This document shows, piece after piece, positions 15,583 through 61,069 of a stretch of 64,000 nt of DNA. Position 1 is the first letter of the stretch, and every line of letters begins with the position of its first letter. The translations under genes and the position numbers were made by a program. Below the pieces are notes generated by a model. It ran no database searches and was not told the DNA's origin. It saw only the letters and a program-made list of their open reading frames with translations. Source of the stretch: Schmidtea polychroa (lineage: Eukaryota). The DNA lies in contig CM097885.1 of assembly GCA_044892525.1 (NCBI GenBank), forward strand, positions 23,126,001 through 23,190,000. Reading direction: 5' to 3'.

Positions 15583-15761
15583 ATGAGTAAGGAATCATCT
15601 GAATAGAAACATTTTACGAAAATAACTGAGACTGAAACCTTCAAATGCAAAGTTTGTGCAAAATTGATTCAGTGCAAGAGATCTTCAAAGAATGGTTTGA
15701 TGATATATTTGTGTACTCAGCTTAATATGAAATTAAAATTTCAGCCTGAAGACTAATCAAG
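15583..15761 (+). pseudogene. BED zinc-finger-like remnant (probable hAT transposase N-terminus) that is the insertion site of the giant element
   Basis: MSKESSE*KHFTKITETETFKCKVCAKLIQCKRSSKNGL resembles the BED pattern W.HF...CKxC; it is degraded. Confidence 0.4.
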
Positions 15762-18700
15762 TGTTGGCGTATGTGGGGAAAAGAAAATATACATGCATAT
15801 CATACACATCAAGCATCATGATTCCGCTCAGGCCATTCCCGCACACACTCCAGATGATCATTCACAAATTCCCACGTATGAGCCCGTGGTGATGTTCCAC
15901 GTTGGTGCTGCTCACACGGGTTGGAAAAAGTCAGCAGGTGAGCCCCTGTCTTAGGACTACTCCTAACCCTTTCTCGGTTCGGGTTCCATGGCGCCCTAGA
16001 AGGTCTTACCCGGTTCTTCGCACAAAAATTCAGTCCGACCCTGGTCCAAGGGGACGACATTTAAGCCTCTACTACGCTTTCAGGATCCTGCTCTTCCGCA
16101 ATTCAACCATAGCAATGCATACATTCAATTAGCACAATCAAAGAAAATAGAACAGTTGTATTATATCGGAACATTAAGATACATCCATCATTATGTAAAT
16201 AAATATAAAACAGTAAAGATTAGGCACAAGATAACGTCAATTTTTCAAGTTTATTCGTAATAGCAGAGAATCGAGACCCGAGAAGAAATTTACTACGAGA
16301 ATGCTTCTCCTTCTGCAAGCATCTCGTCGATGTCAACCGGCAATCGTTGGTTGGAAAGGTACTTAATGCCTTCTGCCGGAACGATGCGAAAGATTTCCTT
16401 TGTGGGAATTGAGTGACTAGACGATATCTCTTTTATGGTGGATTTGGCTGCAGATAGTGACGCTTCGAGTGCAGCCATTGCATCTCGGCGTTTCTGATTT
16501 TTCTCGGCTCGGGTTGGCCGTTTTCGTTTGCGAGATGGCGGAGGGTTGTCCGTGTTCGAGGTGACGACGGGAGCCACTAGGATTGGAGCTAAGATGGGAT
16601 CAGTAGGTCCACCCACCAAAGGTTGATAACCAGATAATGTTGGAGCCGGGACGGGTGGTAGATATGAACCATGTCCTTGGCAGTTTGTGGTGGTCGATTG
16701 AGATACCTGATGATGAAGTGGGAAGACGTTGGTATTCTCCAAGACGGGGAATTCCCGTACCCGCTTGGCCAGTTCCGCCTCCGTATAAACCTTGTGGAGG
16801 CCTTCGGACTGGGCTTTAAAAGTCAATCGTTGATTTCGGCTCTCCTCTAGGAGGCTATCTCTGCGGTGTTCTAGTCGGAGAATCTTACTCGCTCCTCCTT
16901 AATTTGTGGCGGGGAGAACCACGTACCCTCATAGAGATCGATTCTCTTCTTCAATGCCCCGATGTATAGGTGAAGTTGTGCTATGTCGGCATTTTTATCC
17001 GCACACGAGAAGCACGGTCGAAGTTCCTTAGTGTTGCTGGAAGATGTCGTCATTCTAGAAAATCAATCAGTTTTATATCGAGCCAGGACATTTATTTTCG
17101 AATGACACAGTCGAGTTTAGAACATAAGCTGGCCATCTTATCTATCATCTCACCCAATGACAACCCACAGATCTCATCATCCGTTCTCATTCACTGGCAT
17201 TCCACTACAAACATTCAAATTCACTCATACAATCGTTTACGAAAAAGGGAACGGGAATTTGATTAAGAAACGCCTCTGATCTAGGTCCACTTCCTTATCA
17301 TATCGTTATTCTCTAGTTTTCTCATTACTGTCTCAGCTTTCTATCGATGTAATTATACCTAATGACTTTAAAACGAGACCAAAATCCCCGACAACTTATG
17401 GCCAATTATATGTTAAACTACGCTAGGGGAATTATAATAAGAAAATTTAGTTAGAAAACTGAATATTAAATTAAAATTTCCAGTGATTTAAATTATACGC
17501 GGAATTCGTCGTCATGGAGACATTTATTTAGTTGTACATTCTGATTGGATAGCTAGAGGTGTCAATCTTCCGATCGCAATTATAATTGTGCATTAGTTGT
17601 TATTTTTCGAGCAACTGTCTGTACTATTGGAAAAGATTATTGCTTGTCTAGTAAATTGGAGAAAAATCTAATTCCTCACCCTAGTCTGTTGAAAATTTAT
17701 TTCTGAAGAAAATCCATGTATTCACGTGATCATTACATCACCAGCATTTCCTACCAAGCAGTAGATTCATTTGTACACCGCATTACGTGAGAGTGACAGA
17801 AGTGTGTGTATGTACTATGACAGAATAGAACGGATTACATAATCGGCTTTCCGACAAGAAGCAGTAGACAAATTGCGAATCCGATTTATCAGCGCAAGCA
17901 ACCGACGATGTAGCAGAGTGCGGAGTAAGTTGACTTTGTTATCAAATTTCATTTCATGATGTTGACTCAGGATAATGATTATTAGCTGGTTCACTCGACT
18001 ATTCCTACTCACAGAGCGATATAGCATCAATTTAAGTTAGCATTATCAGATAACCCTGTTGGCTGACGGTAAACTGGCTATTGCAAATCAATTGAATACG
18101 GTTATCGTTGACGATAATTTCCCTCGACCTCATAGTAAGTATTCCTAAATTTTTATCGTACCGTGTTTACCTACCCGTCAAAGAGAGATTATTCCCTGCT
18201 GGTGTCTGTGGCTCAAGGACAGAAATTCGACATTCAAGAGTACATCGATGGTGGATGTAACTGCTAACAACCGGGTGACAGATTTAAAAGAAAAGAAAAT
18301 CGAATTCCGCAGAAGGTGAAGACATTATACAATATCTCTGACTGATTCGTGAAATGGTGATGGTAATGCCTCCGAAAAATGCTCTAACGACGACCTGACT
18401 GTCATGAGGATCCTCTTTGCCTGCGTGGATTACCATTAGTTCAATGTCAATATCAAATGTCTATCTCTGTCTAATTCTTGGCCATTTCTAAAATTCGTTG
18501 ACACAAATATTTTGGAATTTTCGCCATAAGAATGGAACTAATCGCAGAACGATCGCACTCGGTGGAAATAATTTTACTCCGCAAACGCATCTCAACTACT
18601 AAGTCTCTTCACCCCTCATGACACACCCAAGAAGGCATTCATTTCTGCCGCCATTCTTGCACCGCCATGAGGGACCAATCGACTCATTCAACTTCAACAT

Positions 18701-19885
18701 CTTTAGCATCATGTATGATTATAAAGCAATAAAATCATGAACAAATAAATAAATATAAAAATTCTTACCCGGCAACCATATCATCTGGCATCCAAGTATG
18801 ATGTCTCCTCCTTCTCAAGCTGCGTACTCAAACATCACTTTTATAACCATCTCATCAATTATGCTCATATTCTCCAAAGATCTAAAAAATCTTCGACATT
18901 GCCTAGATACATTCTACAAAATTTCCTCGTGACATATCTCTGCTGACCACATCATACTCGGATCTTCCAGAGGATACAGCTGCCGGCACCATGAAGAAAA
19001 GATAATTGTCATTTAAATAAAATTTATTCTATGAAATGAGTTTTGTTTTTCATTTTAACCATCAAATTAGCAAACATAAATAATTAATAAACCAAAATAA
19101 GTCACCATACCTAGAGCTTCGAAAAATTGGAACGAATTGAATTTAAAACTGATTTCGTAATAAACTGGTCACTAGTCGTTCGGTAACTTCCTGTAAATGT
19201 AAGTTCTGGAATCTCTGAAGTGATGCTTGTGAGTATGGTTCTGTGGAATATCTGTGATCGGTAATCTGTAATCTGTAATCGTGAAAAATCAAAGTGGGTT
19301 AACTTCTTCTTAAAAATTTTACCTGTAATCGTGAAAAATCAAAGTGGGTGTCTTCTAATTTTTCACGTTACATATATAGTATTTTTCGTCCAATCAGGAC
19401 GCAGCTTGTTTGTGATTTTCTATTTATTATTATTTTTTTATGTTTTTATTATAATGTATTGGGTTTTAATAACTTAACTTATTTCTTATTATTATTTTAT
19501 TTATTTTTCTTATTTTTCTCTTATTTTCTGTGGACTTATTGTTATTTGAATGTAATATAATTTTTTGTTTTAATTAAACTTAGAAATGGTTTTATTTTTT
19601 ATTTATTTCTTTAATTTTCCCGTTTATTTGTTTCACTTTTTTGTTCATTCTATTTTTATTTCATCCGCTGTGTGTCTTAAATCGTTTTATTTCTAAATCT
19701 TAGGGGTTTATTAGGTTTTATTTAATTAGGTTACTTATTCTTATTCTTTTGTTAGTATTTTACTGTTCCTTCCTATTTACTAATGAGATATGATGGTAAT
19801 TTATATATTTCTTATTTTCATTTATTTTTCGAGGTTTACCTTTCTATTCGTTCCAGTTTTCTCCGCTCTGAAATTTAGCCCAACA
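15762..19885 (-). repeat. 3' LTR of giant element (4,124 bp)
   Basis: Collinear with 33699-37822 at offset 17937; by eye ~7 substitutions and two 1-nt indels. Confidence 0.96.
16293..17053 (-). pseudogene. 3'-LTR copy of the LTR-encoded 253-aa ORF, split by a 1-nt deletion near 16889
   Basis: CTTACTCGC here versus CTTACTCCGC in the 5' LTR; this gives the two ORF-track pieces 16871-17053 and 16293-16826. The lesion may be real or a sequencing error. Confidence 0.85.
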
Positions 19886-20119
19886 AATCACTCCGGGGCC
19901 CGTTAAAATTGCGCCCCGCAATTCACATAATGTCATTCATTCGAATCATACCTTCGTTCGGTATAACAACTAATCTCACAATCAAATTTTACACAAACAT
20001 AAAATTAAAAATTAACTAGATAATACTTTAATTAAACAGATAAAAAGGACAAATATAAGCAAGCAGTGGTCACTTAAGGTGACCGGATATATATACACAA
20101 AGTTTATGAATAGTCGATG

Positions 20120-20770
20120 TCACATCATCTCAAGGTTCGAAATGTTATTACTGCCCTGGTTGCTTTTCGGGGATCTTTGGGAGTTCTGGATTGGATGGAT
20201 GGTCGAAGTTGTTGCTGTGGAGAGCTGGATTATAACGGGTATTTGATTAGGAGACCGATTTTGTTGTATTTGGTCGAGTGGGTCTGGTTGTTGGAAATGT
20301 ACTGCTCGTTTATGTATGTTTCGGAATCGCAGGTTCTTTCTTTTGGGTTTCTCGGATAGTGGCTGGTTTCTTTTCCATGTTCGATAGATATCATACGCTT
20401 TCCAGGTGACTAGCGCGCATATGATAATGGTTTCACTGATTGTAGCGTAGAATAAAACTTGGCTTTCTTTTGCTTCTTTCTTTACGATGATTTCCTTCAA
20501 AGATTGTTGATTGGTTGATTCTTGTAGGAGGGTTTCAAGTTGTTCGATTCTTTGGGTTTGCAGGTTGAGTTGCTTTTGGATCTTTTGCCAGACGGCTTTG
20601 TTCCAGCATTGTTTCGGGATATTATTGGAGGGCTTTCTTTCATTTTTCAGTTTGATTAATGGGCTTTGCTGTTTCTCGGGATTCTCCCAGGGTGTTGGGA
20701 TTGACTGCCACATGGATATGCCGTTTATCGCTATCATTATTATTGCCACCAGGGTTGCTCCGAACCTCAT
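20120..20770 (-). CDS. Cargo ORF: 216-aa predicted type-I membrane protein
   Basis: Hydrophobic N-terminus MRFGATLVAIIMIAINGISMW, short coiled coil, second hydrophobic segment VLFYATISETIIICALVTW, then a basic/Q-rich tail. Confidence 0.7.
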   Translation of the reverse strand: MRFGATLVAIIMIAINGISMWQSIPTPWENPEKQQSPLIKLKNERKPSNNIPKQCWNKAVWQKIQKQLNLQTQRIEQLETLLQESTNQQSLKEIIVKKEAKESQVLFYATISETIIICALVTWKAYDIYRTWKRNQPLSEKPKRKNLRFRNIHKRAVHFQQPDPLDQIQQNRSPNQIPVIIQLSTATTSTIHPIQNSQRSPKSNQGSNNISNLEMM

Positions 20771-20824
20771 ACTACTATACGAAAGTTTTATTTACAATTA
20801 TTTACATTGATTATTCATCTTTAA

Positions 20825-21526
20825 TTATTGTCGGGTTTTCTTTTTACGGGTTTTCTCGGATGTTCTCATCACTTTCGTTTCCGCTTTTATTACTCGTTTT
20901 CTTAATTCGGGTAGTACTTCTAATTGTTTGTCTCTTTCGTCTAACTGTTGCTTTAGGGTTATTATTTTTCCTTTTAGTGCTTTTATTTCTTGCGTTGCTC
21001 TTTCGAGGTTTTTATGGTTCATTATTTGTAGAAAATCATTTCCTCTTTCCTCGTCTCCTCCGTCGTCTATTTCTTGGTATTTGTTGTTCATTCGTCTCAT
21101 TATCTCACATTCTTTCTGTTTTTGGTATAGTTGTAGTTGTAGCTCTTTCAGACTTTCTTGGTGTTTTCGGGCCTCGGTTTTCCAATAATCGCTAATCACT
21201 TCATCTGCCTTTCTACTGGCTCTTTCCTGCCATAATTCTCCCGCAATCTTCTCCCAATTTCTTCCTCGTTTTCTCTGCTCGTGGAGCCATTCGTTTTCTT
21301 CCTCCACTTCTTTCTTTACTTCTTCTAACAAGGTATATTCTTTTTTCAATACTTTGATCATTTTTCGATTGTCTCTCCATCTTTCTACTAATCTTTCGTT
21401 TTCTTGTCTCTCCTCTTGTAATTCTTCCTTGATAGTTTTCTTCCTTTCCACCTCCTCAACTTCAATTTCTCCCTCTTCTAGCTCGATTATGGATGTTATG
21501 ATGGGTTGTCCATTTTCAATATTCAT
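20825..21526 (-). CDS. Cargo ORF: 233-aa E/K-rich coiled-coil protein of unknown function
   Basis: Open frame with heptad-like composition; AG acceptor 3 nt before the ATG. Confidence 0.7.
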   Translation of the reverse strand: MNIENGQPIITSIIELEEGEIEVEEVERKKTIKEELQEERQENERLVERWRDNRKMIKVLKKEYTLLEEVKKEVEEENEWLHEQRKRGRNWEKIAGELWQERASRKADEVISDYWKTEARKHQESLKELQLQLYQKQKECEIMRRMNNKYQEIDDGGDEERGNDFLQIMNHKNLERATQEIKALKGKIITLKQQLDERDKQLEVLPELRKRVIKAETKVMRTSEKTRKKKTRQ

Positions 21527-21716
21527 TTTCTATAATATATACATAATTAAAAATTGCGCTACAGTGCGGCTTATACTTATACATTTATATGTAATTTTAT
21601 ATAATCAGGGTTACAGTCCCGTCAATACTTTTATCGTACTATTAATTTTTTTGTTGGGATATAGGTCCCGATTTTTTTTTTTTTTTTTTTTATATTTTTA
21701 TCTCTTCCATTTATCT

Positions 21717-22738
21717 TCATACGAAGGTTTCTTCCTGGCCTACGTATCCTTCATCGCTTTCTACTGATGTTTGTAGTTGGAGTGCGATGGGATCGAATGG
21801 AATGTAGTACCGGGGAATCTGCGCTCTAAGTTCTTGGATTTCGTCTCTTAGCGCTCTTGACACGTTGAGTTCCTCGTCCAACAGGTATGTTAGATACCTG
21901 GTTTCGTCATCCCTTACTTCGATCTGTTTTTCTAATTCTTCCGCTTTTTCGCCGTTTTCCCATTTCTTGATTTCTTTTTCGAGGTTCTTGATGTTTTCAT
22001 CATACATCTTCCTCTCGTTTTCTAATTTCTTGTTCTTACCGGCTAGCACGATATTCCTTTGTTCTAGTGCCCCCTTATAGCCGTTATTGTCTCTTTCAAG
22101 GTCTGCCACCTTATTTACGAGCTCGACGATTCTACCTGACTGTTGCAGGGTCATCTCTTCCATGGCGGTATTCTCCTGTTCTTTCATAGACAGTTTCATG
22201 GCCAGATGCCTTTCAAATTCCATGGCCTTGGTCTGCCAGGTTTGACTACTTTCCTTCTTAGCTCTTCTCTCTGATCAAGATTTTCTTCCCATTTCCCTTG
22301 TTCACTTTCGTATTCCAATCTCTGCGGCAATTCTCTCATTTCTTTTTTAATTTCCCGATGTTGTCTTTTCCACTTTCTGGCTTCTGCTACTAATTGACGG
22401 GTCTTCCTTTCCTCCTTCTGTTTTTCTATTTCCCGCTTCTTATTCTCATCAGTTAGTCTTTTCCTTGACTCCTGTACCAGTTGCTTCAGGTAATGCCCGT
22501 GTGCCTCTTGCCTGGTACTTTCTAATGCTGACCATTTAGCGGCTCTTTTGCAGGCCTCGGCCTCCGCTCGTAAATTCTGCACTAACCACTGGAACTGGTG
22601 GTTTTCCCATTCTCTCGCTTCTTCGAGGTAATTTCGTGTTTGATTTGATAATTGCGCCATCACTTTGGCCCATCTTTCTCTGTGTATTCTACTGATTTTT
22701 ATTTCGTTGTTTGGGGCTTCCGTTTGATCTTGAGTCAT
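21717..22738 (-). CDS. Cargo coiled-coil ORF(s): 180 aa (22196-22738) and 168 aa (21717-22223), probably one ~340-aa protein with a 1-nt frameshift
   Basis: The two ORFs overlap, and the downstream frame is open upstream of its ATG (ERRAKKESSQTWQTKAMEFERH). Confidence 0.6.
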
Positions 22739-22958
22739 CTTTGTCTGAATAACGATATCATTAACTCAACGTCGTACACTTATATCTGTTCTATTATTTA
22801 TTTATTGTTACAATTCGTTATAGGGAGTTGTTTTAGGAGTTTTCCGCTTAAGTTTACCTTTAGTAGATTTGGGGAATTTTTCTACACTACTATATAATAT
22901 TTTACTGGATATATACACCGATATCTACAATTTAGTATATGCAAAATTATTCGTCTCA

Positions 22959-24347
22959 CTACTCTGTTCTACTTTTCCCATCTCGCCTCACTGTTATCTT
23001 TATGTATATGGTATCGTTTCTCGTCATATCTTCTACTTTTCGCTGCAAGATGAAATTCGGTGCTCCGGTTGCTGGTCCTTCTTCTTCCAATGGCCTTTGA
23101 TAACATACGAGGTTTCCCGCTGTATGGAAACTCTGTTCGTGTATACTTTGGTGGTTCATCATTGCGAGGTCTATTTTTGCTTTAAACGGCCATTCTATTA
23201 TTTCGTCGTACAACCCTTTGCATATCAAGAAGAATACTGAAAAATGTGTTCCGTATGCACTTCCATCCCCGTTGGGATATGCTTTCATTTTCATTTTATA
23301 CCCGTTTTTCCATGAATAGAATGCTGGACTTAGTAATGTTGTATCCTTTCCATTTTTGGCTCTCTGCATTTTCTCTTGTACTCCCGTTATTTTCCATATG
23401 TATGGAGCCGTTGGTATTAATTCGTTGAGGTTCATTTCGCTTACTTTTTGATATAGTTCTTTCACCATATTGTTGCTAGTTTCTACTAGATCTGTCTGTA
23501 TCTTTGTATTTGTTCTTGCCCCTACGAATGCTTCTTTCTCCTGTAGTAATTCCTTTACTAACGCTTTTAGCTAGATTTTTTCTCTTTCTAAGTTCTCGGT
23601 TTTCCTTTCGTTTTCTTGTAATACCGTTGAACACATTTCTGTGTGTGTTGCTACGTTCTCTGCTAAATGTTGGGGTAATTCTCCTCGGTGTAATTGTTTT
23701 TGACATCCCCATTTTCCTAATACACACGTTATCTTTTTCTTTCGACATTCTCTTAGATGTTGAGCGAGTTTTATTACTCCGGATTCATCGCATTCGTTAG
23801 GACATTCGCCTCTGAACTCTGTGCATACTTTTTCCTCTTGTACGTTATGGTGTTGACTAGTCAGTTTTCTTCGGGTATCGGTTTCTCCGCAGTATTCACA
23901 TTTTTCCAGCCTTTCTACGCATCGACTTTGATGTTCTTCCTCTTCCTTTGCTTTAATCTCTTCCTGGCAACGTTCGCATTGACTGATTTTATACTCACAC
24001 TTCTCTATATGTTGCCTCACTTCCCATATCACTCCTCGCCCATTGCACGGGGTGTTTTTACATCCTAAATTTGCATTTAACATATCTTTCACTGCCGCTT
24101 TGTCCTCGTTTGTATCTCCCAAACTGGTTATCATGGTTTCTTTACATACTGGGCACCATTGTGGTCCCTTCTTTATTATCTCCTCTATGCATCCCTTGCA
24201 CATCCTACATCCACATCTGGTTTGGTGAGGTTCTTTTAATAAGCTCTTGCATATTCCACACGTTACATGGTTGTGTATTCGAATTGTGGTGGATTTTCTG
24301 ACTTGTTCGACAATCTCTTTGAACTCTTCTCGTTGTCGCTTATCCAT
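22959..24347 (-). CDS. TRAF: Intronless TRAF-family protein (RING, TRAF zinc fingers, coiled coil, MATH/TRAF-C) with one in-frame TAG at 23571-23573
   Basis: RING CGICKSLLKEPHQTRCGHR-like (CGCRMCKGC..CPVC), repeated C-x-C/H-x-C fingers (HIEKCEY, HQSRCVERLEKCEYC, HLRECRKKKITCVLGKWGC), and MATH motifs YIWKI, SPAFYS...GYKM...YPNGDG...THFSVFF...G.YD..IEWPF. 23570-23469 is 34 open codons linking the two ORFs in frame. Confidence 0.92.
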
Positions 24348-24435
24348 TTCTATAATTATACATATACATATATTCGTTACTGGTACAGTTTCGTATTTTT
24401 ATTTACAGTTATTTACATTTTGTTTTAGGTTATAT

Positions 24436-24795
24436 TTATTGGCTGGAAGAGTCGGCCTCTTGTCCGCCCTCTTCCCTACTGGTTAACCATTCTGACCAGT
24501 CTTCTATCTCCTCTCGCTCCATCTCTTCGGCGATTCTCATTAACTCCTCTTCCTGTCCCTGGCTGTATCGCGATATTCGCTCTATTTCTCGCTGCATTTG
24601 CTCTATTTTTATTCGTTGATCTTCGATTATTCTTACATAACTGAATCCTTTATTTAGACTCTCGATTAGATTTCTTTGTACAGCCAGTCCTTGTTCTTGC
24701 AAATTTGAAATTACTTGAGCTAACATTGCACATTGTTGTTTCCACATCTCCTCGGTTGTTGTTTTGTGAGTTACTTCATGGTTTATTTGCTCCAT
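24436..24795 (-). CDS. Cargo ORF: 119-aa helical/coiled-coil protein of unknown function
   Basis: Open frame directly after pol, preceded by TTTAAG|A ATG. Confidence 0.55.
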   Translation of the reverse strand: MEQINHEVTHKTTTEEMWKQQCAMLAQVISNLQEQGLAVQRNLIESLNKGFSYVRIIEDQRIKIEQMQREIERISRYSQGQEEELMRIAEEMEREEIEDWSEWLTSREEGGQEADSSSQ

Positions 24796-24961
24796 TCTTA
24801 AATATATACACTTTTCAACCCTTATCTAATTTTAATTTTATGTTATTTATCCCGTCATTATATAATATTGATACCGCGCTCATATAAAAATATAGAGTAC
24901 TGTTATATAAATAAATATTACCGACTTACTTTTTACAATCTATATACAGTCATAATCCTTT

Positions 24962-27900
24962 CTATATACGTGAGTTTGGAGGTCGCTGAGCATTCCAGGC
25001 CTCCACCCACTGTTCCTGCTTGATATTATTTGGTCTTTTTACCCGATGCTGAAAATTTCTGATTCTGGTCATTTCCAGTTCTCCGCGATGCCGTCTATCT
25101 TTGATTATTTTTATTGTTCCCCCCGTTATAATTAAAAATGCCCCTGTTATTATTATTCCGCTGATCCACATCATCTGTTTTACGCTTATAATTTCCGATT
25201 TTTCCTTGTTCGTTATTGTTGATATCGTCTCTGTACTTTTTGGATTACCGCTTTTACTATTTCCTTTTATCATCCCTCGTATCCTTGCTACCTCCTCGTT
25301 CATACCTTCCTTTGCAATCTTTTGTATTTTTTCCATCTCCTCCTCGGATACATAATTGTCCTGATATTTCTCACTGGTTTTCTTGCGCTTTCTTTCCTCA
25401 TCTTTTTCATCATTGATTTTTCTTTTCTTCCCTCTTTTCCCCGGGTATCGTCGACATTCTCTTTCTGGACAGTTTCTCAGGATACAGACCGTATATTCCT
25501 TTGGTGGTTGTTGTTGCGTTACATATTGTAGACAGTTTTCTCCTGGTCCTAGCCTTGAAATACACACTTTGTGCTCTTTTCTTGGTTGAAGCTGTGTTAT
25601 CACTATTTCACCTCCTTTACTCAGGTGTACCTCTTTCCATTTGACTTTTGTTATCTTCTTCCCGTTTCGATGTTGGTACGCTTCTTGTATTCCCACTTCC
25701 GTTATTGGTTCTGCATCTTCATTTTTTAACACTAGTCTCTGATAAGCTCTAGACATACATCTTCCTAATATACACCTTTCTTTTAAATCCCATTCTTCTT
25801 TTAGATCCCATTGTTGCTCTTGTACTTGCTTTTTCTTTTCTTGTTTTAGTTCTTCCTCTTTGTTGTCCTTATTTTCCGTTTCTTTGGCTTCTTTTATCGT
25901 TCTCATTCCTCCCTGGGCTGTTATCATTTCCACCATTGTTAATACGAGTATCATTATCATCATATTTGTCTCCATTTCTTTGTTGGTAAAAAGTAGGCAT
26001 ACCCTCTGTTTTCCAATATTCGTCTTTTCTTCTTGCTTCATTCGGTTTCCCGGGTTATCCTCTTCCTTTTTCGTACTTGCGTTGTTATTTTCTTGATTAT
26101 TCTCCTCTGGTTTCTCGTTCTCTTTATTCCCGTTTCGACTTTTCTCATTATTATCGTCGTCTTTATCGTCTTTATCTTTATCGTCTTTATCTCCCCCGCT
26201 GTCGTTTAAAATGTCGTCCTCGACATTTATATCGTTCAACAATCTGCGATATGCTGTTAGCACTCTATTTCTTGCTAATTTTGCTTCGAATTCGAACTCT
26301 TTTCTGCCTGTTGCTGCATGTCTCTTTCTATTCCATTCTTTTACCAGTTCTCTCAATTGTATCCGACGATGTTTTCCGATTCGCTTTTGTTCGTTTTGAC
26401 TTTGCGTGAATTTGAGGTCTTCCCTGTTTAATACGATCATTATGATTTTCGGAGTGCCTCCTTTTGCTAATGTATTCTTAACCATTGCATTTTCTCCGTT
26501 TTCGTAGAACTCATTTATATTTATTGCATATTTATTGCTTTGTGGTATTTTCCATGTTAACAGTAACTTCATGGCTTCCAAATTTTTCCGTATCGTATTC
26601 CATTGGAACTGTGACGTGTTTTTACAGATATTTTCTACCTCAGTTCTTATAGCATTCTTACAAATGAATCTAATCATTTCCAAGTTTGGTTGTGTTGTTG
26701 CCCAATCCATGGTAGAATTCCCTTCGTTTGATATTTCGTCAAGCCTTGATCCTGATTGATGTAGTATATGTAATGTTTTCGGGTGTATATTTGTTATTGC
26801 TGCATACATCATTGCTGTTTCTCCTTGTTCATTTTTTGCATTAGATTCTTCTCCTAAGTCTCTAAGAATTCTTATGATGGTTATCGCTCTGTTTTCCTTT
26901 GCTGCTAGTATTGCTTGTTGTAATGGTGTTCTTGAATCTTTTGTTGGTATGGTGAACGCTAGTGGTATGAATGTTTTTATTTTACCTATGTCTAAATTTG
27001 TAGTTTGATCTCTTGCGTAGGTGTGTACTGTTTTTATTATTTTTGCCAGTATCGCTTCATCAGATAAATCTAGCATTTCTTCAAAGAACACCTCTTTGGC
27101 TTTGCGTATTATTATCTCTTGGTCTGAGTTTATTATCCTGGCTTTACCTGTCGTTGTTATATCAGTTATTATTTGATCGACTTGTTCCTCAGACTCTCTT
27201 GTTTTTACTTTCTTTATTTTTAACTTTTTCTTGTTTGAACTGTTAATGCGTTCCTCCGCCGTTAGAACTTGAATAATACTGAGGTAAGTTTCTCGAATGT
27301 TATTCATATTTTCCATCATATATAAAACACTCACGGTTTCCCAATATTTTACTTGTACTTTATCGGTGAATTGCGATATGGATTTTTCAAAATTAGTAAT
27401 TCGCTTTCTGATCAGGTGTTCGTCTTTATGGTTTGAGAGTTTTATACCTCGCTGTAATAGTTGATTTGGGATTTCAAATAGGTGATGTCCTCTCATTGCT
27501 TCTCTCATCAAGGTGTTTTCTCCTTTGGTAAATGTTTCGTTTATGTCTACCATATAATCGTTTTTCATCGGGTTTCTCCACGAAATTAGTACACTAGTAA
27601 TTGATATTAATTTCCCTTTGATAGCGGTTAATAGCCCGTCGTACATGTTTCCTATTTCTCTGTTATCCTCGTATGACAATAGGTCTACTAAGGTTATGAA
27701 TGCTTCGGTGCTTTTTCCTTCGATTGCATGATGTAGTGCATTTTTCTGATCGTGGTCTTGTGTGGTTATCTTTGATCCGGTTTCTAGTAATGCTATTATG
27801 ATATCCTTAGTTTTATCTCGATTTGCTGCTATCATTAGTGGAGTATAACCTTGATTGTTTTCTTGATCTGTCGAAATGTTACAATCGCGGAATGCTTCAA

Positions 27901-31072: not shown

Positions 31073-31540
31073 TCGTTCATTTTCATATATGATTTTATCT
31101 TCTTCCTCGAAATTCGTGATGTTGATTGGTATTTCTCCTTCTTCATTTATCGTTATTATTTCTCGTGCTAATGGTTATTCTCGTCTTTTTTCGAATGATT
31201 TACTTGGTTCAAAGATAGCTTCTCCTTCCATTCCCCATACAATTCTTCGTGGAATATAATTACCCATCAACCCATAGTTTTCGTCGATTTTAAATTATCT
31301 ATTTGGGGTAGTAACAATTATCTATATGGTCGTATAAATTATCTATAGTTATTACTTATAATATCGATAGGTCGTTGTCGGTTGCTGCTTATTACCCCCC
31401 TTATTTCCTTAATCCTTTTACGCGGTTCCGCTATTTTACTTAATCTTTCGTCTCTGTTTCCCCTTACTCGGTTCTAATCTGAACCAAAAGTCAAACTCGT
31501 TTAACCGGTTTAAACCACAAAAATCTGTAGAACTCCGTCT

Positions 31541-31550
31541 ACTCACCTGG
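31541..31550 (-). promoter_or_regulatory. Consensus 5' splice donor CAG|GTGAGT upstream of pol (candidate major splice donor)
   Basis: The plus strand reads ACTCACCTGG; this is a perfect donor consensus in a non-coding leader. Its function is inferred. Confidence 0.45.
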
Positions 31551-31809
31551 CGTCCCCTTTAATCAATTAATTATTTCTTCTTTATTCATTATCTAATCAC
31601 ACTTATTCTTTATTTTCAATTATCTTAATTCCTTTTCCTTTTCTGTTTCTCCGTTTCCACTAAAAGAATTTTACTATCATCTTCTACCAGCTCGTTTAAT
31701 CCTCTCTAAATTCGAATTCTCATATCCAAATTCAATTCATTTCTAACTAGCTTAATATCCTATCTCATTATCAACTTAGATACTATCCAATCATTTTCTA
31801 GGCCTTTAC

Positions 31810-32208
31810 GACTGGCTGGCACTTTTCACCAGCTCAGTTTCAAATTCCTTGACCGGCTGGACTTCTCGACAGCTCGGCCTTAATATCTCCGACTGGCTGG
31901 ACTTTTCACAGCTCAGTTTCAAATTCCTTGACCGGCTGGATTCTCGACAGCTCGGCCTTAATATCTCCGACTGGCTGGACTTTTCACAGCTCAGTTTCAA
32001 ATTCCTTGACCGGCTGGACTTCTCGACAGCTCGGCCTTAATATCTCCGACTGGCTGGACTTTTCACAGCTCAGTTTCAAATTCCTTGACCGGCTGGACTT
32101 CTCGACAGCTCGGCCTTAATATCTCCGACTGGCTGGACTTTTCACAGCTCAGTTTCAAATCCCTTGACCGGCTGGACTTCTCGACAGCTCGGTCTTAATA
32201 TCTCCGAT
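31810..32208. repeat. Tandem array of a 79-bp unit (~5 copies; each unit has two related ~40-bp halves)
   Basis: GCTCAGTTTC recurs at 31832, 31911, 31989, 32068 and 32147. Confidence 0.93.
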
Positions 32209-32788
32209 TCAGCATGCTTCCACTTCTATCCTATCTTTATTCTAGACTGTCATTTTCCTACTTTTACTTTTTATTTGTCGACCTAATCTGTGCCGCTTGA
32301 GAGTGTTTCCCCTTTCCCCCCTTGCTCAAAACGCAAAACGATCGCATTGATCCATTTCCACATTAGTATGGTGATCAGCCATACCGCAGAAACTTTTCAA
32401 TATTCGCGATGGTACCTCGCCTTACATCTCTTCCTCGGGGTGATCGGTTATCCCTTCCCAAACAGTTTTTCAAATATCGTACCTCCCGAAGGTGGCTCGG
32501 TTTATTCCCCCTTTAATCTTATGGTGGGACTAGTTCCACTTTATATAATCAAATTGAATTTTTAAATACCCTTTCTTCATGGTGAAAATTATGATATAAC
32601 AAATCGAATTATAGCTACGCAAAAATGAAATAAACACACAAAATGATTTATTGATTATTCAGCTCATACTACATGCGATATATGATACTCTTATTAAAAC
32701 ATTAACCAATCAAATCAAAAAAAATTAAAATGTTTAGTCTTAATTGTTCAATTCAGCCAAATTCTCCTCACCGAGTGACGATCGCGTG

Positions 32789-33253
32789 TTAGTGGAAGTA
32801 TACCGTGTGTGTCTCTTTTATCACACACGCACATAAAGAACAATGGGTTAAGTTGGCGACGCATTCATCACAATGGCTTAGGTGTCCGCAAGGTAATATC
32901 AACATTCTGCCAGGTCGTGTCTTACAAATATTACACCCTAACCCTTCAATCAAGACTCGTATCCTCTTAGATAAAGTTTTTACTTGCTCGCGTATTCTTA
33001 TGTATTCGATATTCAAGACGGGATCGTCAAGACGTTGCTGAAGCCATTGGTAATGAATAGACAAGTCGGTGTTGGTATTTGTTGATCCTAATCTGTCGGT
33101 TAGAAAGTTTTGTTTGGATATCAGCGGTGCGTTGTGGCGTTGTTGCTCTAAGAGTTCTATTTGTTTCAGTTTCTCTTTTAATGTCTTTATTGAGTCGTTT
33201 TCTATATCGATGAATCTGCTTAGCTGTTGTAGATGTTGCCTAGCTTCTGACAT
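32789..33253 (-). CDS. Cargo ORF: 154-aa coiled coil plus C-terminal IAP/MDM2/MYLIP-type C3HC4 RING (probable E3 ligase)
   Basis: CNICKTRPGRMLILPCGHLSHCDECVANLTHCSLCACVIKETHTVY matches the IAP-class RING spacing, with the RING at the extreme C-terminus. No BIR seen. Confidence 0.85.
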   Translation of the reverse strand: MSEARQHLQQLSRFIDIENDSIKTLKEKLKQIELLEQQRHNAPLISKQNFLTDRLGSTNTNTDLSIHYQWLQQRLDDPVLNIEYIRIREQVKTLSKRIRVLIEGLGCNICKTRPGRMLILPCGHLSHCDECVANLTHCSLCACVIKETHTVYFH

Positions 33254-33673
33254 ATCTGAATAAATGTATGGTTATTATTTGTTCCTACTGGTATTATCAA
33301 TAATACTATTATGTTTGCATTTAATAATCGTTTATCTTTCATTTGTTATCGTTTCTAGCTTTTGTATTTTATTTAATCTTTAACAATCCCTCCGTCGTAT
33401 TTTCGACTTTAATCATTTAATTAAAATTAAAACAAAAATAACTAATTCCCGTTTTCTTTTCTCATCATACTCAATCATGTTCCTTCATACTCCTTTAGAC
33501 TCGTTTTCATTCATGCATACTCTATTCAAACACATATAGTTCGTATTGTCCTTCTGTCACACGATAAAATCAAATCAATTTAGTTGGGTCCCGATTCTAT
33601 TTATCATAATCCATTAAATCACTCAACCAACACATCATGACACAATAATAGGCCATCAAAACAAATCAAATTC

Positions 33674-33691
33674 ATCCCGGCTGAGCCCCCA
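33674..33691 (-). promoter_or_regulatory. Primer-binding site, tRNA-Pro-like (TGGGGGCTCAGCCGGGAT)
   Basis: 18 nt resembling the complement of tRNA-Pro 3' ends, 7 nt inside the 5' LTR boundary. Confidence 0.75.
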
Positions 33692-34229
33692 AAAATCATG
33701 TTGGCGTATGTGGGGAAAAGAAAATATACATGCATATCATACACATCAAGCATCATGATTCCGCTCAGGCCATTCCCGCACACACTCCAGATGATCATTC
33801 ACAAATTCCCACGTATGAGCCCGTGGTGATGTTCCACGTTGGTGCTGCTCACACGGGTTGGAAAAAGTCAGCAGGTGAGCCCCTGTCTTAGGACTACTCC
33901 TAACCCTTTCTCGGTTCGGGTTCCATGGCGCCCTAGAAGGTCTTACCCGGTTCTTCGCACAAAAATTCAGTCCGACCCTGGTCCAAGGGGACGACATTTA
34001 AGCCTCTACTACGCTTTCAGGATCCTGCTCTTCCGCAATTCAACCATAGCAATGCATACATTCAATTAGCACAATCAAAGAAAATAGAACAGTTGTATTA
34101 TATCGGAACATTAAGATACATCCATCATTATGTAAATAAATATAAAACAGTAAAGATTAGGCACAAGATAACGTCAATTTTTCAAGTTTATTCGTAATAG
34201 CAGAGAATCGAGACCCGAGAAGAAATTTA

Positions 34230-34991
34230 CTACGAGAATGCTTCTCCTTCTGCAAGCATCTCGTCGATGTCAACCGGCAATCGTTGGTTGGAAAGGTACT
34301 TAATGCCTTCTGCCGGAACGATGCGAAAGATTTCCTTTGTGGGAATTGAGTGACTAGACGATATCTCTTTTATGGTGGATTTGGCTGCAGATAGTGACGC
34401 TTCGAGTGCAGCCATTGCATCTCGGCGTTTCTGATTTTTCTCGGCTCGGGTTGGCCGTTTTCGTTTGCGAGATGGCGGAGGGTTGTCCGTGTTCGAGGTG
34501 ACGACGGGAGCCACTAGGATTGGAGCTAAGATGGGATCAGTAGGTCCACCCACCAAAGGTTGATAACCAGATAATGTTGGAGCCGGGACGGGTGGTAGAT
34601 ATGAACCATGTCCTTGGCAGTTTGTGGTGGTCGATTGAGATACCTGATGATGAAGTGGGAAGACGTTGGTATTCTCCAAGACGGGGAATTCCCGTACCCG
34701 CTTGGCCAGTTCCGCCTCCGTATAAACCTTGTGGAGGCCTTCGGACTGGGCTTTAAAAGTCAATCGTTGATTTCGGCTCTCCTCTAGGAGGCTATCTCTG
34801 CGGTGTTCTAGTCGGAGAATCTTACTCCGCTCCTCCTTAATTTGTGGCGGGGAGAACCACGTACCCTCATAGAGATCGATTCTCTTCTTCAATGCCCCGA
34901 TGTATAGGTGAAGTTGTGCTATGTCGGCATTTTTATCCGCACACGAGAAGCACGGTCGAAGTTCCTTAGTGTTGCTGGAAGATGTCGTCAT
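34230..34991 (-). CDS. LTR-encoded 253-aa protein (CxxC plus coiled coil, Pro-rich linker, basic RKRKRPTRAEKNQKRR segment)
   Basis: Intact ORF; homologues at 47747-48508 and 43159-~43913, with mainly synonymous divergence. Confidence 0.85.
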   Translation of the reverse strand: MTTSSSNTKELRPCFSCADKNADIAQLHLYIGALKKRIDLYEGTWFSPPQIKEERSKILRLEHRRDSLLEESRNQRLTFKAQSEGLHKVYTEAELAKRVREFPVLENTNVFPLHHQVSQSTTTNCQGHGSYLPPVPAPTLSGYQPLVGGPTDPILAPILVAPVVTSNTDNPPPSRKRKRPTRAEKNQKRRDAMAALEASLSAAKSTIKEISSSHSIPTKEIFRIVPAEGIKYLSNQRLPVDIDEMLAEGEAFS

Positions 34992-37299
34992 TCTAGAAAA
35001 TCAATCAGTTTTATATCGAGTCAGGACATTTATTTTCGAATGACACAGTCGAGTTTAGAACATAAGCTGGCCATCTTATCTATCATCTCACCCAATGACA
35101 ACCCACAGATCTCATCATCCGTTCTCATTCACTGGCATTCCACTACAAACATTCAAATTCACTCATACAATCGTTTACGAAAAAGGGAACGGGAATTTGA
35201 TTAAGAAACGCCTCTGATCTAGGTCCACTTCCTTATCATATCGTTATTCTCTAGTTTTCTCATTACTGTCTCAGCTTTCTATCGATGTAATTATACCTAA
35301 TGACTTTAAAACGAGACCAAAATCCCCGACAACTTATGGCCAATTATATGTTAAACTACTCTAGGGGAATTATAATAAGAAAATTTAGTTAGAAAACTGA
35401 ATATTAAATTAAAATTTCCAGTGATTTAAATTATACGCGGAATTCGTCGTCATGGAGACATTTATTTAGTTGTACATTCTGATTGGATAGCTAGAGGTGT
35501 CAATCTTCCGATCGCAATTATAATTGTGCATTAGTTGTTATTTTTCGAGCAACTGTCTGTACTATTGGAAAAGATTATTGCTTGTCTAGTAAATTGGAGA
35601 AAAATCTAATTCCTCACCCTAGTCTGTTGAAAATTTATTTCTGAAGAAAATCCATGTATTCACGTGATCATTACATCACCAGCATTTCCTACCAAGCAGT
35701 AGATTCATTTGTACACCGCATTACATGAGAGTGACAGAAGTGTGTGTATGTACTATGACAGAATAGAACGGATTACATAATCGGCTTTCCGACAAGAAGC
35801 AGTAGACAAATTGCGAATCCGATTTATCAGCGCAAGCAACCGACGATGTAGCAGAGTGCGGAGTAAGTTGACTTTGTTATCAAATTTCATTTCATGATGT
35901 TGACTCAGGATAATGATTATTAGCTGGTTCACTCGACTATTCCTACTCACAGAGCGATATAGCATCAATTTAAGTTAGCATTATCAGATAACCCTGTTGG
36001 CTGACGGTAAACTGGCTATTGCAAATCAATTGAATACGGTTATCGTTGACGATAATTTCCCTCGACCTCATAGTAAGTATTCCTAAATTTTTATCGTACC
36101 GTGTTTACCTACCCGTCAAAGAGAGATTATTCCCTGCTGGTGTCTGTGGCTCAAGGACAGAAATTCGACATTCAAGAGTACATCGATGGTGGATGTAACT
36201 GCTAACAACCGGGTGACAGATTTAAAAGAAAAGAAAATCGAATTCCGCAGAAGGTGAAGACATTATACAATATCTCTGACTGATTCGTGAAATGGTGATG
36301 GTAATGCCTCCGAAAAATGCTCTAACGACGACCTGACTGTCATGAGGATCCTCTTTGCCTGCGTGGATTACCATTAGTTCAATGTCAATATCAAATGTCT
36401 ATCTCTGTCTAATTCTTGGCCATTTCTAAAATTCGTTGACACAAATTTTTTGGAATTTTCGCCATAAGAATGGAACTAATCGCAGAACGATCGCACTCGG
36501 TGGAAATAATTTTACTCCGCAAACGCATCTCAACTACTAAGTCTCTTCACCCCTCATGACACACCCAAGAAGGCATTCATTTCTGCCGCCATTCTTGCAC
36601 CGTCATGAGGGACCAATCGACTCATTCAACTTCAACATCTTTAGCATCATGTATGATTATAAAGCAATAAAATCATGAACAAATAAATAAATATAAAAAT
36701 TCTTACCCGGCAACCATATCATCTGGCATCCAAGTATGATGTCTCCCCTTCTCAAGCTGCGTACTCAATCATCACTTTTATAACCATCTCATCAATTATG
36801 CTCATATTCTCCAAAGATCTAAAAAATCTTCGACATTGCCTAGATACATTCTACAAAATTTCCTCGTGACATATCTCTGCTGACCACATCATACTCGGAT
36901 CTTCCAGAGGATACAGCTGCCGGCACCATGAAGAAAAGATAATTGTCATTTAAATAAAATTTATTCTATGAAATGAGTTTTGTTTTTCATTTTAACCATC
37001 AAATTAGCAAACATAAATAATTAATAAACCAAAATAAGTCACCATACCTAGAGCTTCGAAAAATTGGAACGAATTGAATTTAAAACTGATTTCGTAATAA
37101 ACTGGTCACTAGTCGTTCGGTAACTTCCTGTAAATGTAAGTTCTGGAATCTCTGAAGTGATGCTTGTGAGTATGGTTCTGTGGAATATCTGTGATCGGTA
37201 ATCTGTAATCTGTAATCGTGAAAAATCAAAGTGGGTTAACTTCTTCTTAAAAATTTTACCTGTAATCGTGAAAAATCAAAGTGGGTGTCTTCTAATTTT

Positions 37300-37335
37300 T
37301 CACGTTACATATATAGTATTTTTCGTCCAATCAGG
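37300..37335 (-). promoter_or_regulatory. LTR promoter: inverted CCAAT (CTGATTGG) plus TATA box ~500 nt inside the LTR
   Basis: The same ATTGG...TATATA arrangement occurs in the solo LTRs at ~45355-45379 and ~42106-42143. Confidence 0.6.
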
Positions 37336-40300
37336 ACGCAGCTTGTTTGTGATTTTCTATTTATTATTATTTTTTTATGTTTTTATTATAATGTATTGGG
37401 TTTTAATAACTTAACTTATTTCTTATTATTATTTTATTTATTTTTCTTATTTTTCTCTTATTTTCTGTGGACTTATTGTTATTTGAATGTAATATAATTT
37501 TTTGTTTTAATTAAACTTAGAAATGGTTTTATTTTTTATTTATTTCTTTAATTTTCCCGTTTATTTGTTTCACTTTTTTGTTCATTCTATTTTTATTTCA
37601 TCCGCTGTGTGTCTTAAATCGTTTTATTTCTAAATCTTAGGGGTTTATTAGGTTTTATTTAATTAGGTTACTTATTCTTATTCTTTTGTTAGTATTTTAC
37701 TGTTCCTTCCTATTTACTAATGAGATATGATGGTAATTTATATATTTCTTATTTTCATTTATTTTTCGAGGTTTACCTTTCTATTCGTTCCAGTTTTCTC
37801 CGCTCTGAAATTTAACCCAACACAAGTATGAGTCCGAAATTTTAAGTAACATTAAATAAATTTACAGAAAAGAAATTTCTGTACAAAATTCTTACGAAAT
37901 TCCAAACATATAAAACTTTCGATGTCTGAGAAAATGTCTGAGAAAACGAATAAAACCCTTATAGGTGAGATAAAGGGATTCTTCAAAAATCCAAAAAAAC
38001 AAGTTATTATACGAATCCGTAATCAAATAAATAAATTGAAAAACAAAATTTTGAATAAATTGAATAGCACAATAATTTCAATGTTGAAGTCTCTAAACTT
38101 GAGATTCCCAACGTTGCTGTGATAACTATATATAAGACAAAGTCTGGTTATCAAATATTTATTTAAAATTCAAATTTCTTACCAATACAATCCTTTTGAG
38201 ATTTGATTTCACTGGAAAATAATCGTGGGTGTTTAATATTATGTTAGTGCGTTATGTTGAGTACTACGGTTAAACTTTACTGTCGTGTCTTGTTAAAGAT
38301 TAAAAACTAATAAGGTTTTTAAATTATCTAGTGTTTCCAGGCCAAGGAAAACTAAAACCAAAACAACATAATAATAAAACATATTAAAACAACACAACAA
38401 CATAATAATTTTCTTTTTGAATATAGTTATATTTTTTCAGACTTTCTCCATATTCGTAAATATTTCGTGATGTACTATTTGTTATTGTGTAAGTTTTAAT
38501 TTAATATTCTTTTAACATTAACCTTCCTAATGTTTTCCTTTTCAAACCTTTTAATGATTTTAACTTAACCTGCTCTGAATCATTTAAAAATCTCTGAATT
38601 ATATAACAAATTCAAAAAAAGCTTATTATCATTTAACATTCTCAGTGTCATGGCAGTCATTTTTGACTGACAGTGCTTTGCCACTTGCACCACAACAGGT
38701 CTTTTACAGGTAAAAATGTAATTTTTTTGTTGTCAGACACATTTATCTACCAATACTCTGTGTCAGGTCGATTTGTCTAACAGAGACTTTTTAAAAAATA
38801 ATTTTGTGAGGTCAATGTGTCTGACAATAACATGTTAAAAAGGCTGTTTTTCTGTGGCACTGTATTAACAGTAACCATAGGCTCGTATAGATCTTTTTGC
38901 ATGAACTTAAATTGTAAAAAGGCTTTATTGGAGCAAAATTTTAAAATGAAATATACAGTTTGATGTTCATATAAATTAATAAAATTAAAAATTATTTCAC
39001 TATTTTTTGATGCATTGAAATTTAAAAAATAAAACTATTAAATATGCAATTAATATTATTAAAATTTAATCTCACACTAATAAACGAATAACCATTTCTT
39101 GTTTGATGTTGTTTAAACCGTCAATTTATTTAAATTTCCTTTTAAAATATTTTCTCAAACATGTCCTCCAACATTAATTCATGTAATTATTTGATTACTA
39201 ATAAGTAAAGTCTAGAAACGAAGAAAAAACAATATAAAGTAAAGTTTGATTATATTCAATTTTTTCTAAAAATTAAATTTAAGTTGACAAATGAATTCTG
39301 GCATTTATTAGAATATAGAAACTTGAATTAAAAACAGATTATTTCGTAGAAAATTTAGAGATGAGAAATTTGTAAGGTATATTAATATTTTAGTTTTGAT
39401 ACAAATATTGTAAGTTATTAATTCTTTGATAATGATAATTTGATTTATTATGAATACTCGGCTTCACATGTATATAACGTATATAGTTATTATTCATAAA
39501 TTTATTGTGATTAATGCTTTAATATTTACATTTTAATTTATGTTTTGATCTTGATATAATTAGGTTATTATCAGATTTTGAAGTTAAAGGAAAATGTACT
39601 AGCTGAACGTTGTGAGTTTTGGCTAATTGTATCGATTAGATCGTTACACCTATAACTGTTAGAATTCTATATAGTTAATAGATTAGAAAATTAGGCACAC
39701 TGGCGACCTTATGAAGTTGATAATTTCCCTACTACTATTATGCCTAAATATGGTCAGTTTATCCAACAAGATATTTTGTCCCCATATGGGTAATGGTCAC
39801 AAATTTACTGCTCGAAAAAATCTCTTGCCCCATTATTAACAAATTATTATTCCAACGAAACATATGTAGTTGCATGCTGACTGCAACATACATTTTCAAT
39901 ATGAAGACTTAATTATACCAAATAATCTTCAATGAAACTATAACGAGTTTTCAGTAATAAAATTTTGTGTACTATAAAAATCAACACCAAAATAAATGTT
40001 TTTTATATATTGATATCATATATTAGCCGCTTAATAAAACATCGTCGATATTGATGTTACCACAATCCATATTTACATTATTATTGTGATTGTTATCATC
40101 GGAATCATCTAAGTCCGGACTCATTCCGTCAAAAAGTGGACCAACTTCAAATACCTGGTCAATATCTGGAACATTGAGTCCTAAATAATAACCATATGCC
40201 AGACTGGTATTAGGCCCCACCCATAGCCGCTTGTCACTAAGCTATGAACGCTGGCCTACCACAAGCAAGCTATCCTTGTAATAGTGCCCAAATGTCAAAA

Positions 40301-60580: not shown

Positions 60581-60596
60581 CCACCACGTAATCCTC

Positions 60597-60991: not shown

Positions 60992-60995
<4 letters not shown>

Positions 60996-61064: not shown

Positions 61065-61069
<5 letters not shown>

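Follow-up and report, generated by a model that had tools for sequence, protein, structure and literature searches.

Why would a retroelement carry genes for TRAF, RING, ankyrin, coiled-coil and membrane-type proteins, and are these genes of use to it? The question is raised by a 64,000-nt stretch of the Schmidtea polychroa genome (assembly GCA_044892525.1, contig CM097885.1, positions 23,126,001 to 23,190,000; hereafter, the window), in which an element bounded by long terminal repeats (LTRs) at positions 15762 to 37822 holds such a set of genes, referred to below as its cargo. We consider it highly probable that this element is a decaying copy, with an internal deletion, of a Burro-type Ty3/gypsy LTR retroelement of about 30.5 kb, with a family cargo that is under purifying selection and likely dampens host signalling. 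Its identity as a defective Burro-type copy, from a family other than Burro1 (hereafter, family A), is well supported, and the control of host signalling by the cargo, a putative function, is likely.

The headline of this locus is a giant LTR element whose cargo of TRAF, IAP-type and ankyrin genes may interfere with apoptosis and ubiquitination in the host, and publications of 2007-2019 already contain it; the primary descriptions of Burro/GYPSM1, known to us via a later review, are reportedly those of Jurka in 2007 and Grohme in 2018. A first-pass annotation of the window had left it undecided whether the cargo set was already described; both the cargo and the idea of host meddling have been published for Burro/GYPSM1. 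Indeed, the available text of that 2019 review proposes that Burro may thrive by interfering with apoptosis and ubiquitination in its host, an idea "worthy of experimental confirmation" (PMC6431247). Added here are a first confirmation step for one family, namely that its cargo is selected as protein, a 253-aa (amino acid) gene embedded in the LTR, and acceptor-like sites ahead of the accessory open reading frames (ORFs). In the literature searched, which left most subscription papers uncovered, we found no report of the LTR gene, of selection on Burro cargo or of the acceptors; figures and supplements of the primary Burro papers may show the LTR gene or family A.

Anatomy and family of the element

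Two direct repeats of the window (15762-19885 and 33699-37822), each 4,124 bp long with TG...CA ends, are the LTRs of the element. They differ at 9 positions (7 substitutions and 2 one-base gaps; 99.8% identity) and are flanked by the duplication CAAG on both sides, in agreement with the near-identity and intact target site noted by eye at first pass. The right-hand repeat is the 5' LTR, because the long ORFs all lie on the minus strand and a site resembling a primer-binding site (PBS) stands 7 nt behind that repeat. The main landmarks are as follows.

15758..15761 (left) and 37823-37826 (right), no strand: target-site duplication CAAG, 4 bp, flanking both LTRs
15762..19885, minus strand: 3' LTR, 4,124 bp, from repeat comparison; its copy of the LTR ORF is frameshifted
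24962..31174, minus strand: remnant polyprotein frame, 2,070 aa, with reverse transcriptase (RT) at aa 153-311, RNase H at 374-503, integrase at 611-783, ankyrin clusters at ~1060-1250 and ~1390-1570, and a membrane-type tail
31218..31234, no strand: 17-bp microhomology, the junction of an 8.3-8.4-kb deletion by comparison with siblings; gag, CCHC knuckles, env and protease lost
33674..33691, minus strand: PBS-like 18-mer, 7 nt behind the 5' LTR, identical at 26 listed places in family A and in a second family, B
33699..37822, minus strand: 5' LTR, 4,124 bp, TG...CA, from repeat comparison

The LTRs with their TG...CA ends, the short target duplication and the PBS-like site, which we take to be tRNA-Pro-like, are those of a Ty3/gypsy element, as is the gene order (RT-RNase H-integrase in the window copy, with protease ahead of RT in siblings); a PDB sequence search returned Ty3 as the closest solved RT relative. 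A tRNA scan of the whole window found no tRNA gene. Pfam recognizes RT, RNase H and integrase (E 1e-12 to 1e-38) as well as Ank_2 (E 1.2e-17) in the 2,070-aa frame, so that the proposed fusion of ankyrin clusters to integrase is real.

The first 150 aa of this pol remnant, used as a genome query, gave 4,324 candidates, and among the 150 that were scored, full-length frames of 4,724-4,817 aa surround about 49 matches (hand count). The 5' part of two siblings contains, by Pfam, Retrotrans_gag, 2 CCHC knuckles, Monjiviricetes_fusion and protease, the env-like fusion domain PF24664 being in frame between gag and protease in both (E 3.6e-72 and 7.6e-71). Pairs of LTR ORFs across the genome are mostly spaced 26.1-26.6 kb apart, vs. 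17.9 kb in the window copy, which gives the family its length of ~30.5 kb, and six other LTR pairs of the family are 99.4-99.98% identical, so that the family has been recently active. A query with the MATH domain of the TRAF gave 1,465 candidates; of 150 scored, ~109 lie inside an unbroken frame of 471-484 aa (hand count). The cargo is thus not confined to the window copy, since at least 150 scored genomic copies carry it, and gene order is identical in the copies fetched. Eight loci (L001-L008) are mosaic, with 97-99% identity to the window at the RT start and 70-77% in alignable parts of the LTR, a pattern suggesting that LTR types and cores have recombined with each other; at another (L027), a deletion joins the polyprotein frame to the TRAF in a 1,789-aa frame.

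The 22-kb element is young, as its LTRs indicate, but it is not whole. Siblings hold an extra 8.3-8.4 kb that enters at the microhomology of 31218-31234, and the deletion junction is crossed by the window alone (1 of 40 scored matches from 607 candidates). An in-frame stop at 23571-23573 splits the TRAF into frames of 275 and 203 aa, coiled-coil ORF 1 has a 16-bp frameshifting deletion near 22250, and a frameshift near 16889 breaks the LTR ORF in its 3'-LTR copy (16293-17053). These three breaks beyond the large deletion would be about the number predicted for neutral decay of 13.8 kb from 9 LTR differences per 8.2 kb. Judged by its reading frames, the window copy is unable to make gag, env, protease or a full-length TRAF, and it is almost certainly dead or helper-dependent, because gag, env and protease are all lost. 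The description of the element as virus-like fits its family, in which siblings carry the in-frame Monjiviricetes-type fusion domain, a domain deleted from the window copy.

Family A shares with Burro1/GYPSM1 of Schmidtea mediterranea a size of ~30 kb or more, multi-kb LTRs, a single gag-to-integrase polyprotein of 4,700-4,800 aa with env in frame ahead of protease, ankyrin repeats, and TRAF/MATH and RING cargo. In the available text of PMC6431247, planarian Burro/GYPSM1 is described as longer than 30 kb, with a 4,873-aa ORF1 in which env is in frame between gag and protease, and Burro1 motifs include RING, Smc, MATH_TRAF_C, BIR, BCL2-like and ankyrin. Family A is unlike Burro1 in that MATH_TRAF_C lies outside the polyprotein (absent there in 2/2 siblings), no BIR gene is present and there are 2 CCHC matches; moreover, three of three published BURRO1 primers find no site in the window or in 80 loci even with 4 mismatches allowed. 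Family B of the same genome (L053-L060), ~74% identical to family A over RT-integrase, is 35 kb long, with 4.8-kb LTRs and 4,791-aa frames with MATH inside, and also carries separate TRAF, BIR-RING and RING-only ORFs and two LTR ORFs; it matches the Burro1 description better than family A does. Domain content and the three primers thus set family A apart as Burro-type but not Burro1.

Pfam gave a ubiquitin match of E 0.033 in ORF1 of one of two siblings, the published ubiquitin and BCL2-like calls having rested on HHpred, and general Pfam scans of the window and siblings, made with no profile-profile comparison, found no dUTPase-like or Smc-like regions. A Burro-like element of Dugesia tigrina, as described in the available text of PMC6431247, is similar to family A in having two CCHC knuckles and MATH_TRAF_C in a separate accessory ORF rather than in ORF1; it differs in that its TRAF ORF is upstream and its 5,140-aa ORF1 has midasin-like homology, whereas the TRAF of family A is downstream of a 4,730-4,810-aa frame. 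Giant size, multi-kb LTRs and extra ORFs are also common to the Ogre elements of plants (same source).

Selection on the cargo genes

The cargo and the signals that may serve its expression are located as follows.

20120..20770, minus strand: predicted type-I membrane protein, 216 aa, signal-like at 10-28 and membrane-like at 112-130 of the frame (simple hydropathy)
20825..21526, minus strand: coiled-coil ORF 2, 233 aa, from the ORF and sibling comparison
21717..22738, minus strand: coiled-coil ORF 1, 347-368 aa in siblings, frameshifted in the window copy
22959..24347, minus strand: intronless TRAF2/3-like gene with RING, zinc fingers, coiled coil and MATH (Pfam), in-frame stop in the window copy
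24436..24795, minus strand: small helical ORF, 120 aa from ATG, no family match
24962..25975, minus strand: in-frame tail module of the polyprotein, signal-like stretch at aa 1738-1756, beta-rich part and membrane-like stretch at aa 1998-2016 (simple hydropathy)
32789..33253, minus strand: RING-only ORF, 154 aa (160-aa frame), coiled N-part and C-terminal cIAP/XIAP-type RING, no BIR
33941..33946, minus strand: candidate splice-donor-like GTAAG, ~255 nt ahead of the PBS, conserved in family A
34230..34991 (5' LTR; copy at 16293-17053 in the 3' LTR), minus strand: LTR ORF, 253 aa, acceptor-like AG just ahead of ATG

Cargo proteins are under purifying selection across family copies, and the possibility raised at first pass that they evolve neutrally is thereby dismissed. 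We have compared the downstream 10 kb of 32 copies out of 150 MATH-scored (20 at 88% identity or more and 12 at 68-78%), stepping down the list and keeping broken copies, and added 20 upstream regions; rows with less than 70% segment cover were dropped. The choice of copies by MATH similarity entails a bias for the MATH segment only. Maximum-likelihood estimates of the ratio of nonsynonymous to synonymous divergence (dN/dS) for 28-33 rows were 0.02 for the integrase, 0.08 and 0.06 for the ankyrin clusters, 0.15 for the polyprotein tail, 0.13 and 0.10 for the two halves of the TRAF, 0.15 for the small ORF and 0.06 and 0.16 for the coiled-coil ORFs; the membrane ORF (11 rows) gave 0.44. Pairwise dN/dS agrees with these tree-based values. 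For the RING ORF and the LTR ORF, pairwise dN/dS amounts to 0.15-0.22 and 0.14-0.27, respectively, at synonymous divergences of 0.05-0.6, with 23 of 25 regions covered and none with a stop for the former, and 24 of 25 covered and two with a stop for the latter; one locus (L079) that has no family sequence is counted among the 25. Synonymous distance across subfamilies extends up to ~2, and in the closest pairs dN/dS climbs to 0.7, as expected where post-insertion mutations dominate. The proteins are therefore made and useful to the element.

Properties and expression of the cargo proteins

The proposed TRAF is recognizable in the window copy by its RING, weak zinc fingers and MATH domain (E 5.6e-26), the in-frame stop notwithstanding, and a 479-aa sibling has the full order of RING, zinc fingers, coiled coil and TRAF-C/MATH (E 3e-28). 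This is the domain order of cellular TRAF2/TRAF3, from which the element gene differs in being intronless and multi-copy. A protein-database search with the element TRAF returned a single match, a rotifer TRAF at 25% identity. The genomic comparison covered 14 non-element TRAF loci, a 15th having proved to be a family member and been left out. Element MATH domains are only 29-40% identical to these 14 and sit on long branches, so that they were captured long ago from a donor that cannot be named; they cluster with one non-element TRAF at 85/89 support, which is not firm. Non-element TRAFs of the genome (L081-L094) include intronless genes of 454-476 aa as well as one-chromosome clusters with MATH in 180-210-aa frames. 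In the RING of the element TRAF, CGC replaces CGH, as it does in several non-element TRAFs of the genome; the rotifer TRAF has CGC too, which rules out this variant as a planarian-specific mark. The available text of PMC6824462 prompted the idea that element piRNAs might also target the host's own traf mRNAs, but this finds no support at the 14 non-element TRAF loci, to which neither element TRAF had a nucleotide match at E 1e-3. The host TRAF expansion has hundreds of intronless element TRAFs beside it. For context, available portions of published work cover traf piRNA targets (PMC6824462), TRAF expansion (PMC8807557) and genome repeats (PMC11410931).

The best solved relatives of the RING-only ORF are the RINGs of cIAP1, cIAP2 and XIAP (E 2.7e-8), with which it shares the IAP-type RING, a preceding helix and a C-terminal aromatic tail. 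The "IAP-type" label is correct in this sense; nevertheless, a BIR is wanting, and the protein is therefore not an IAP. A role as decoy or dimer partner would be as plausible for it as that of an active ligase. The ankyrin region has 235 generic ankyrin-protein matches at 20-40% identity and no close relative. Hydropathy supports two modules with signal-like and membrane-like stretches, as annotated initially, but one of the two is the tail of the polyprotein and not a separate ORF. The tail module may be FN3-like, as its Atlas score of 0.80-0.86 against FN3-plus-membrane proteins offers a lead only; its structure model (pLDDT 45) had no Foldseek match at E 0.001.

The 253-aa LTR protein is predicted to consist of two long helices broken at TWFSP, a Pro-rich linker, a basic helix (RKRKR-x-KRR) and an acidic tail, and a structure model (pLDDT 67) likewise shows the pair of long helices and the basic helix, with the linker disordered. 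It has no match in Pfam, PDB sequences or Foldseek, by sequence or fold, including to Rev, Tat or Tas; in Atlas, the top match was delta antigen at 0.79, under the Atlas threshold. The ORF stays open and can still be aligned at identities as low as 33-37% where flanking LTR DNA stops aligning, and relatives are present in family B. Its first 105 aa, used as a genome query, gave 6,062 candidates, which is not a copy number. A basic 17-mer with 8-10 K/R is present in 20/20 element rows, with an export-like pattern after it in 2/18 family-A rows. A profile search found 17 outside proteins, several with an Arg-rich motif, and one of 16 outside homologues had a Pfam REV match (E 0.0013) short of the cut-off. 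It is an even call whether this protein is, as a putative function, a nuclear regulator of transcription or RNA export of the element itself. In many of the 16 outside relatives examined (P0123-P0137), the LTR-protein part is joined to an unrelated host domain, such as transporter, phosphatase, actin or subtilase, and these fusions are probably intronic LTRs called as exons. Together, element TRAFs and LTR-ORF fusions among predicted proteins leave gene counts and gene models in such genomes open to contamination.

Expression of the accessory ORFs may follow the manner of complex retroviruses, as suggested by acceptor-like AGs right ahead of them. A YAG within 7 nt of the ATG precedes the RING ORF in 18/18 copies, the TRAF in 28/30, the coiled-coil ORFs in 30/30 and 27/28, the membrane ORF in 12/12 and the LTR ORF in 15/19, vs. 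a background at other ATGs of 68/310 and 26/111 (22-23%), the copies being related, with 5-18 distinct contexts per ORF. In family B, about 7 of 8 accessory ORFs have an acceptor-like start (by eye). The donor-like site reads G|GTAAG in 15/15 regions of subfamily 1 and C|GTAAG in 5/5 of subfamily 2, some 255-275 nt ahead of the PBS in all 20 family-A regions. The arrangement suggests, as the simplest reading of the sequence, one LTR promoter, one donor and a row of acceptors. Splicing of some kind is probable, the accessory ORFs being expressed from spliced sub-genomic RNAs with one acceptor per ORF and either a donor near the LTR end or spliced-leader (SL) trans-splicing. None of the read joints listed for the sequencing runs lies at a predicted acceptor (33 further joints are outside that list). 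Coverage of 19900-31200 by four runs (X1, 30/30 bins; X2, 30/30; X6, 21; X7, 9) has no bearing on transcription, the RNA status of the runs being guessed and a silent-DNA control lacking.

Readings of the cargo and surrounding sequence

On the reading that we prefer, the cargo (TRAF, RING, ankyrin, coiled-coil, membrane and LTR genes) would be kept since it damps host ubiquitin-dependent stress, immune or death signalling, and the damping would act in cells where the element is active. Within this reading we lean slightly towards a putative role of the TRAF and the BIR-less RING protein at host TRAF/IAP complexes, whether as adaptors, ligases or decoys. According to the available text of PMC8532177, BURRO1 RNA was observed in intestinal cells after smedwi-2 RNA interference (RNAi). 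Several observations weigh against our overall explanation. Selection tells of benefit to the element without naming a pathway. Pfam found no BIR in the window ORFs or in the scanned family-A sibling ORFs, and in most copies the RING-only protein has no counterpart of the cIAP1 Arg behind the last Cys, which makes its ligase activity uncertain. Database matches of the ankyrin region (the 235 generic proteins) provided no IkB assignment, and Pfam and PDB sequence searches of the sibling 5' part gave no BCL2-like match. Contigs of runs X1 and X2 join 20808 to ~24424-24446, and both places share a 20-base spacer motif, so that a variant without the TRAF and both coiled-coil ORFs probably exists, although none was found among five extra copies fetched; given such a variant, these ORFs may be dispensable in cis. 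The acceptor counts are non-independent, the small ORF has AAG in 29/29 copies and YAG in 0/29, and the tail module has YAG within 7 nt in 0/29. Finally, the smedwi-2 phenotype was unchanged by BURRO1 RNAi, with no rescue, in the available text of PMC8532177, and one published BURRO1 primer had no genome-wide match at up to 2 mismatches.

Purifying selection would fit equally well with cargo that serves the element's own cycle (ubiquitin-dependent budding, env trafficking, particle scaffolding, cell-to-cell contact) and not host immunity or apoptosis. The in-frame fusion protein and two extra membrane-type proteins of the family speak for this alternative, as do the missing BIR and the loss of the cIAP Arg from the RING in most copies; it is nevertheless unlikely, if a serious contender, as families A and B both keep a complete TRAF2/3-like gene, and family B has a BIR-RING IAP and a second MATH as well. 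TRAF, MATH and BIR-RING domains bind signalling partners. Far less room is left for neutral hitch-hiking of captured host DNA, or for host genes enclosed by two LTRs by chance: the broken TRAF and coiled-coil ORF of the window copy would suit this explanation, but it is refuted by selection (dN/dS of 0.06-0.22 across subfamilies, at synonymous distances to ~2), and the shared gene order and the long branches of element MATHs, at 29-40% identity to the 14 non-element TRAFs, likewise make it scarcely tenable. As to the 22-kb form itself, a replicating non-autonomous subfamily that has its own RT-integrase and borrows gag and protease from helpers would account for the near-identical LTRs, the PBS-like site that is kept, the RT, RNase H and integrase motifs and the observation that none of the 15 nearest RT relatives has a full frame. 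Such a subfamily is very unlikely given the private deletion junction and the three further breaks, which would approximate the neutral-decay expectation from LTR differences.

The mode of expression has an alternative of its own, in which the accessory ORFs form an operon that host SL trans-splicing, and not cis-splicing from an LTR donor, would resolve. TGTAnATA, which presumably resembles a Pumilio element, occurs 10 times in 985 nt of spacers, strand-specifically (shuffle mean 0.9; 0/500; motif picked after looking), and 9 times in 1,110 nt of family-B spacers, and this enrichment in both families is compatible with an operon. The same-strand spacers between accessory ORFs (55-226 nt) are under the 300-nt flatworm operon threshold, and SL trans-splicing occurs in S. 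mediterranea, as stated in the available text of PMC12582326; in addition, family B has no donor-like site at the same place in 2/2 regions. Against these points stand the conservation of the donor-like site near the LTR end in all 20 family-A regions and the absence of AATAAA enrichment from the spacers, and we regard an operon as rather unlikely.

Returning to damping of host signalling, a wider and tentative picture, which we hold as possible and short of probable, is that Burro-type elements are complex endogenous retroviruses on a Ty3/gypsy core. A donor or spliced leader would feed the acceptors of at least seven accessory genes, a Rev-/Tat-like regulator would lie wholly in the LTR and hence persist in solo LTRs by the thousand, and in stem-cell progeny the TRAF and IAP-type ligases that the elements have captured would shut down death or immune signalling of the host. 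Complex and foamy-like retroviruses have accessory ORFs, spliced RNAs and LTR-overlapping genes such as MMTV sag and HIV nef, and the likeness of the element to them, as a way of working, consists in many short accessory ORFs behind acceptor-like sites and an LTR gene with a basic motif. Unlike them, family A has an RT of Ty3/gypsy type, env within the polyprotein and an LTR protein that lacks a match to Rev, Tat or Tas.

Two minor features complete the anatomy of the element.

19886..19925, minus strand: conserved GC-rich stretch before the 3' LTR, at the polypurine-tract position, not purine-rich; same in family-A siblings and similar in family B
31809..32207, no strand: 79-bp tandem repeat, 5 copies, in the leader; unit of 73-80 bp and ~2-10 copies in siblings

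The surrounding sequence is rich in other repeats. A solo LTR of a sister subfamily (44856-49056, plus strand, in the opposite orientation, 70-76% identical in parts, 4-bp duplication GCTG) has an open 253-aa LTR ORF at 47747-48508. It is inserted in an LTR of a decayed smaller gypsy-type element (~44770-53919, minus strand), with LTRs of ~280 bp (53639-53919 and the interrupted copy), RT at 51411-52076 and integrase at 49928-50821. On the other side, a 445-aa integrase ORF of another LTR element (12295-13632, plus strand) is separated from the Burro copy by a stretch with inverted repeats (13819-14042 and 15239-15453). Transposase fragments are found on the minus strand at 44330-44761 (DDE_3) and 55180-56344 (HTH_Tnp_Tc5 and DDE_1), and a TA microsatellite (60996-61064) with palindromic AT-rich flanks lies within 60094-61156.

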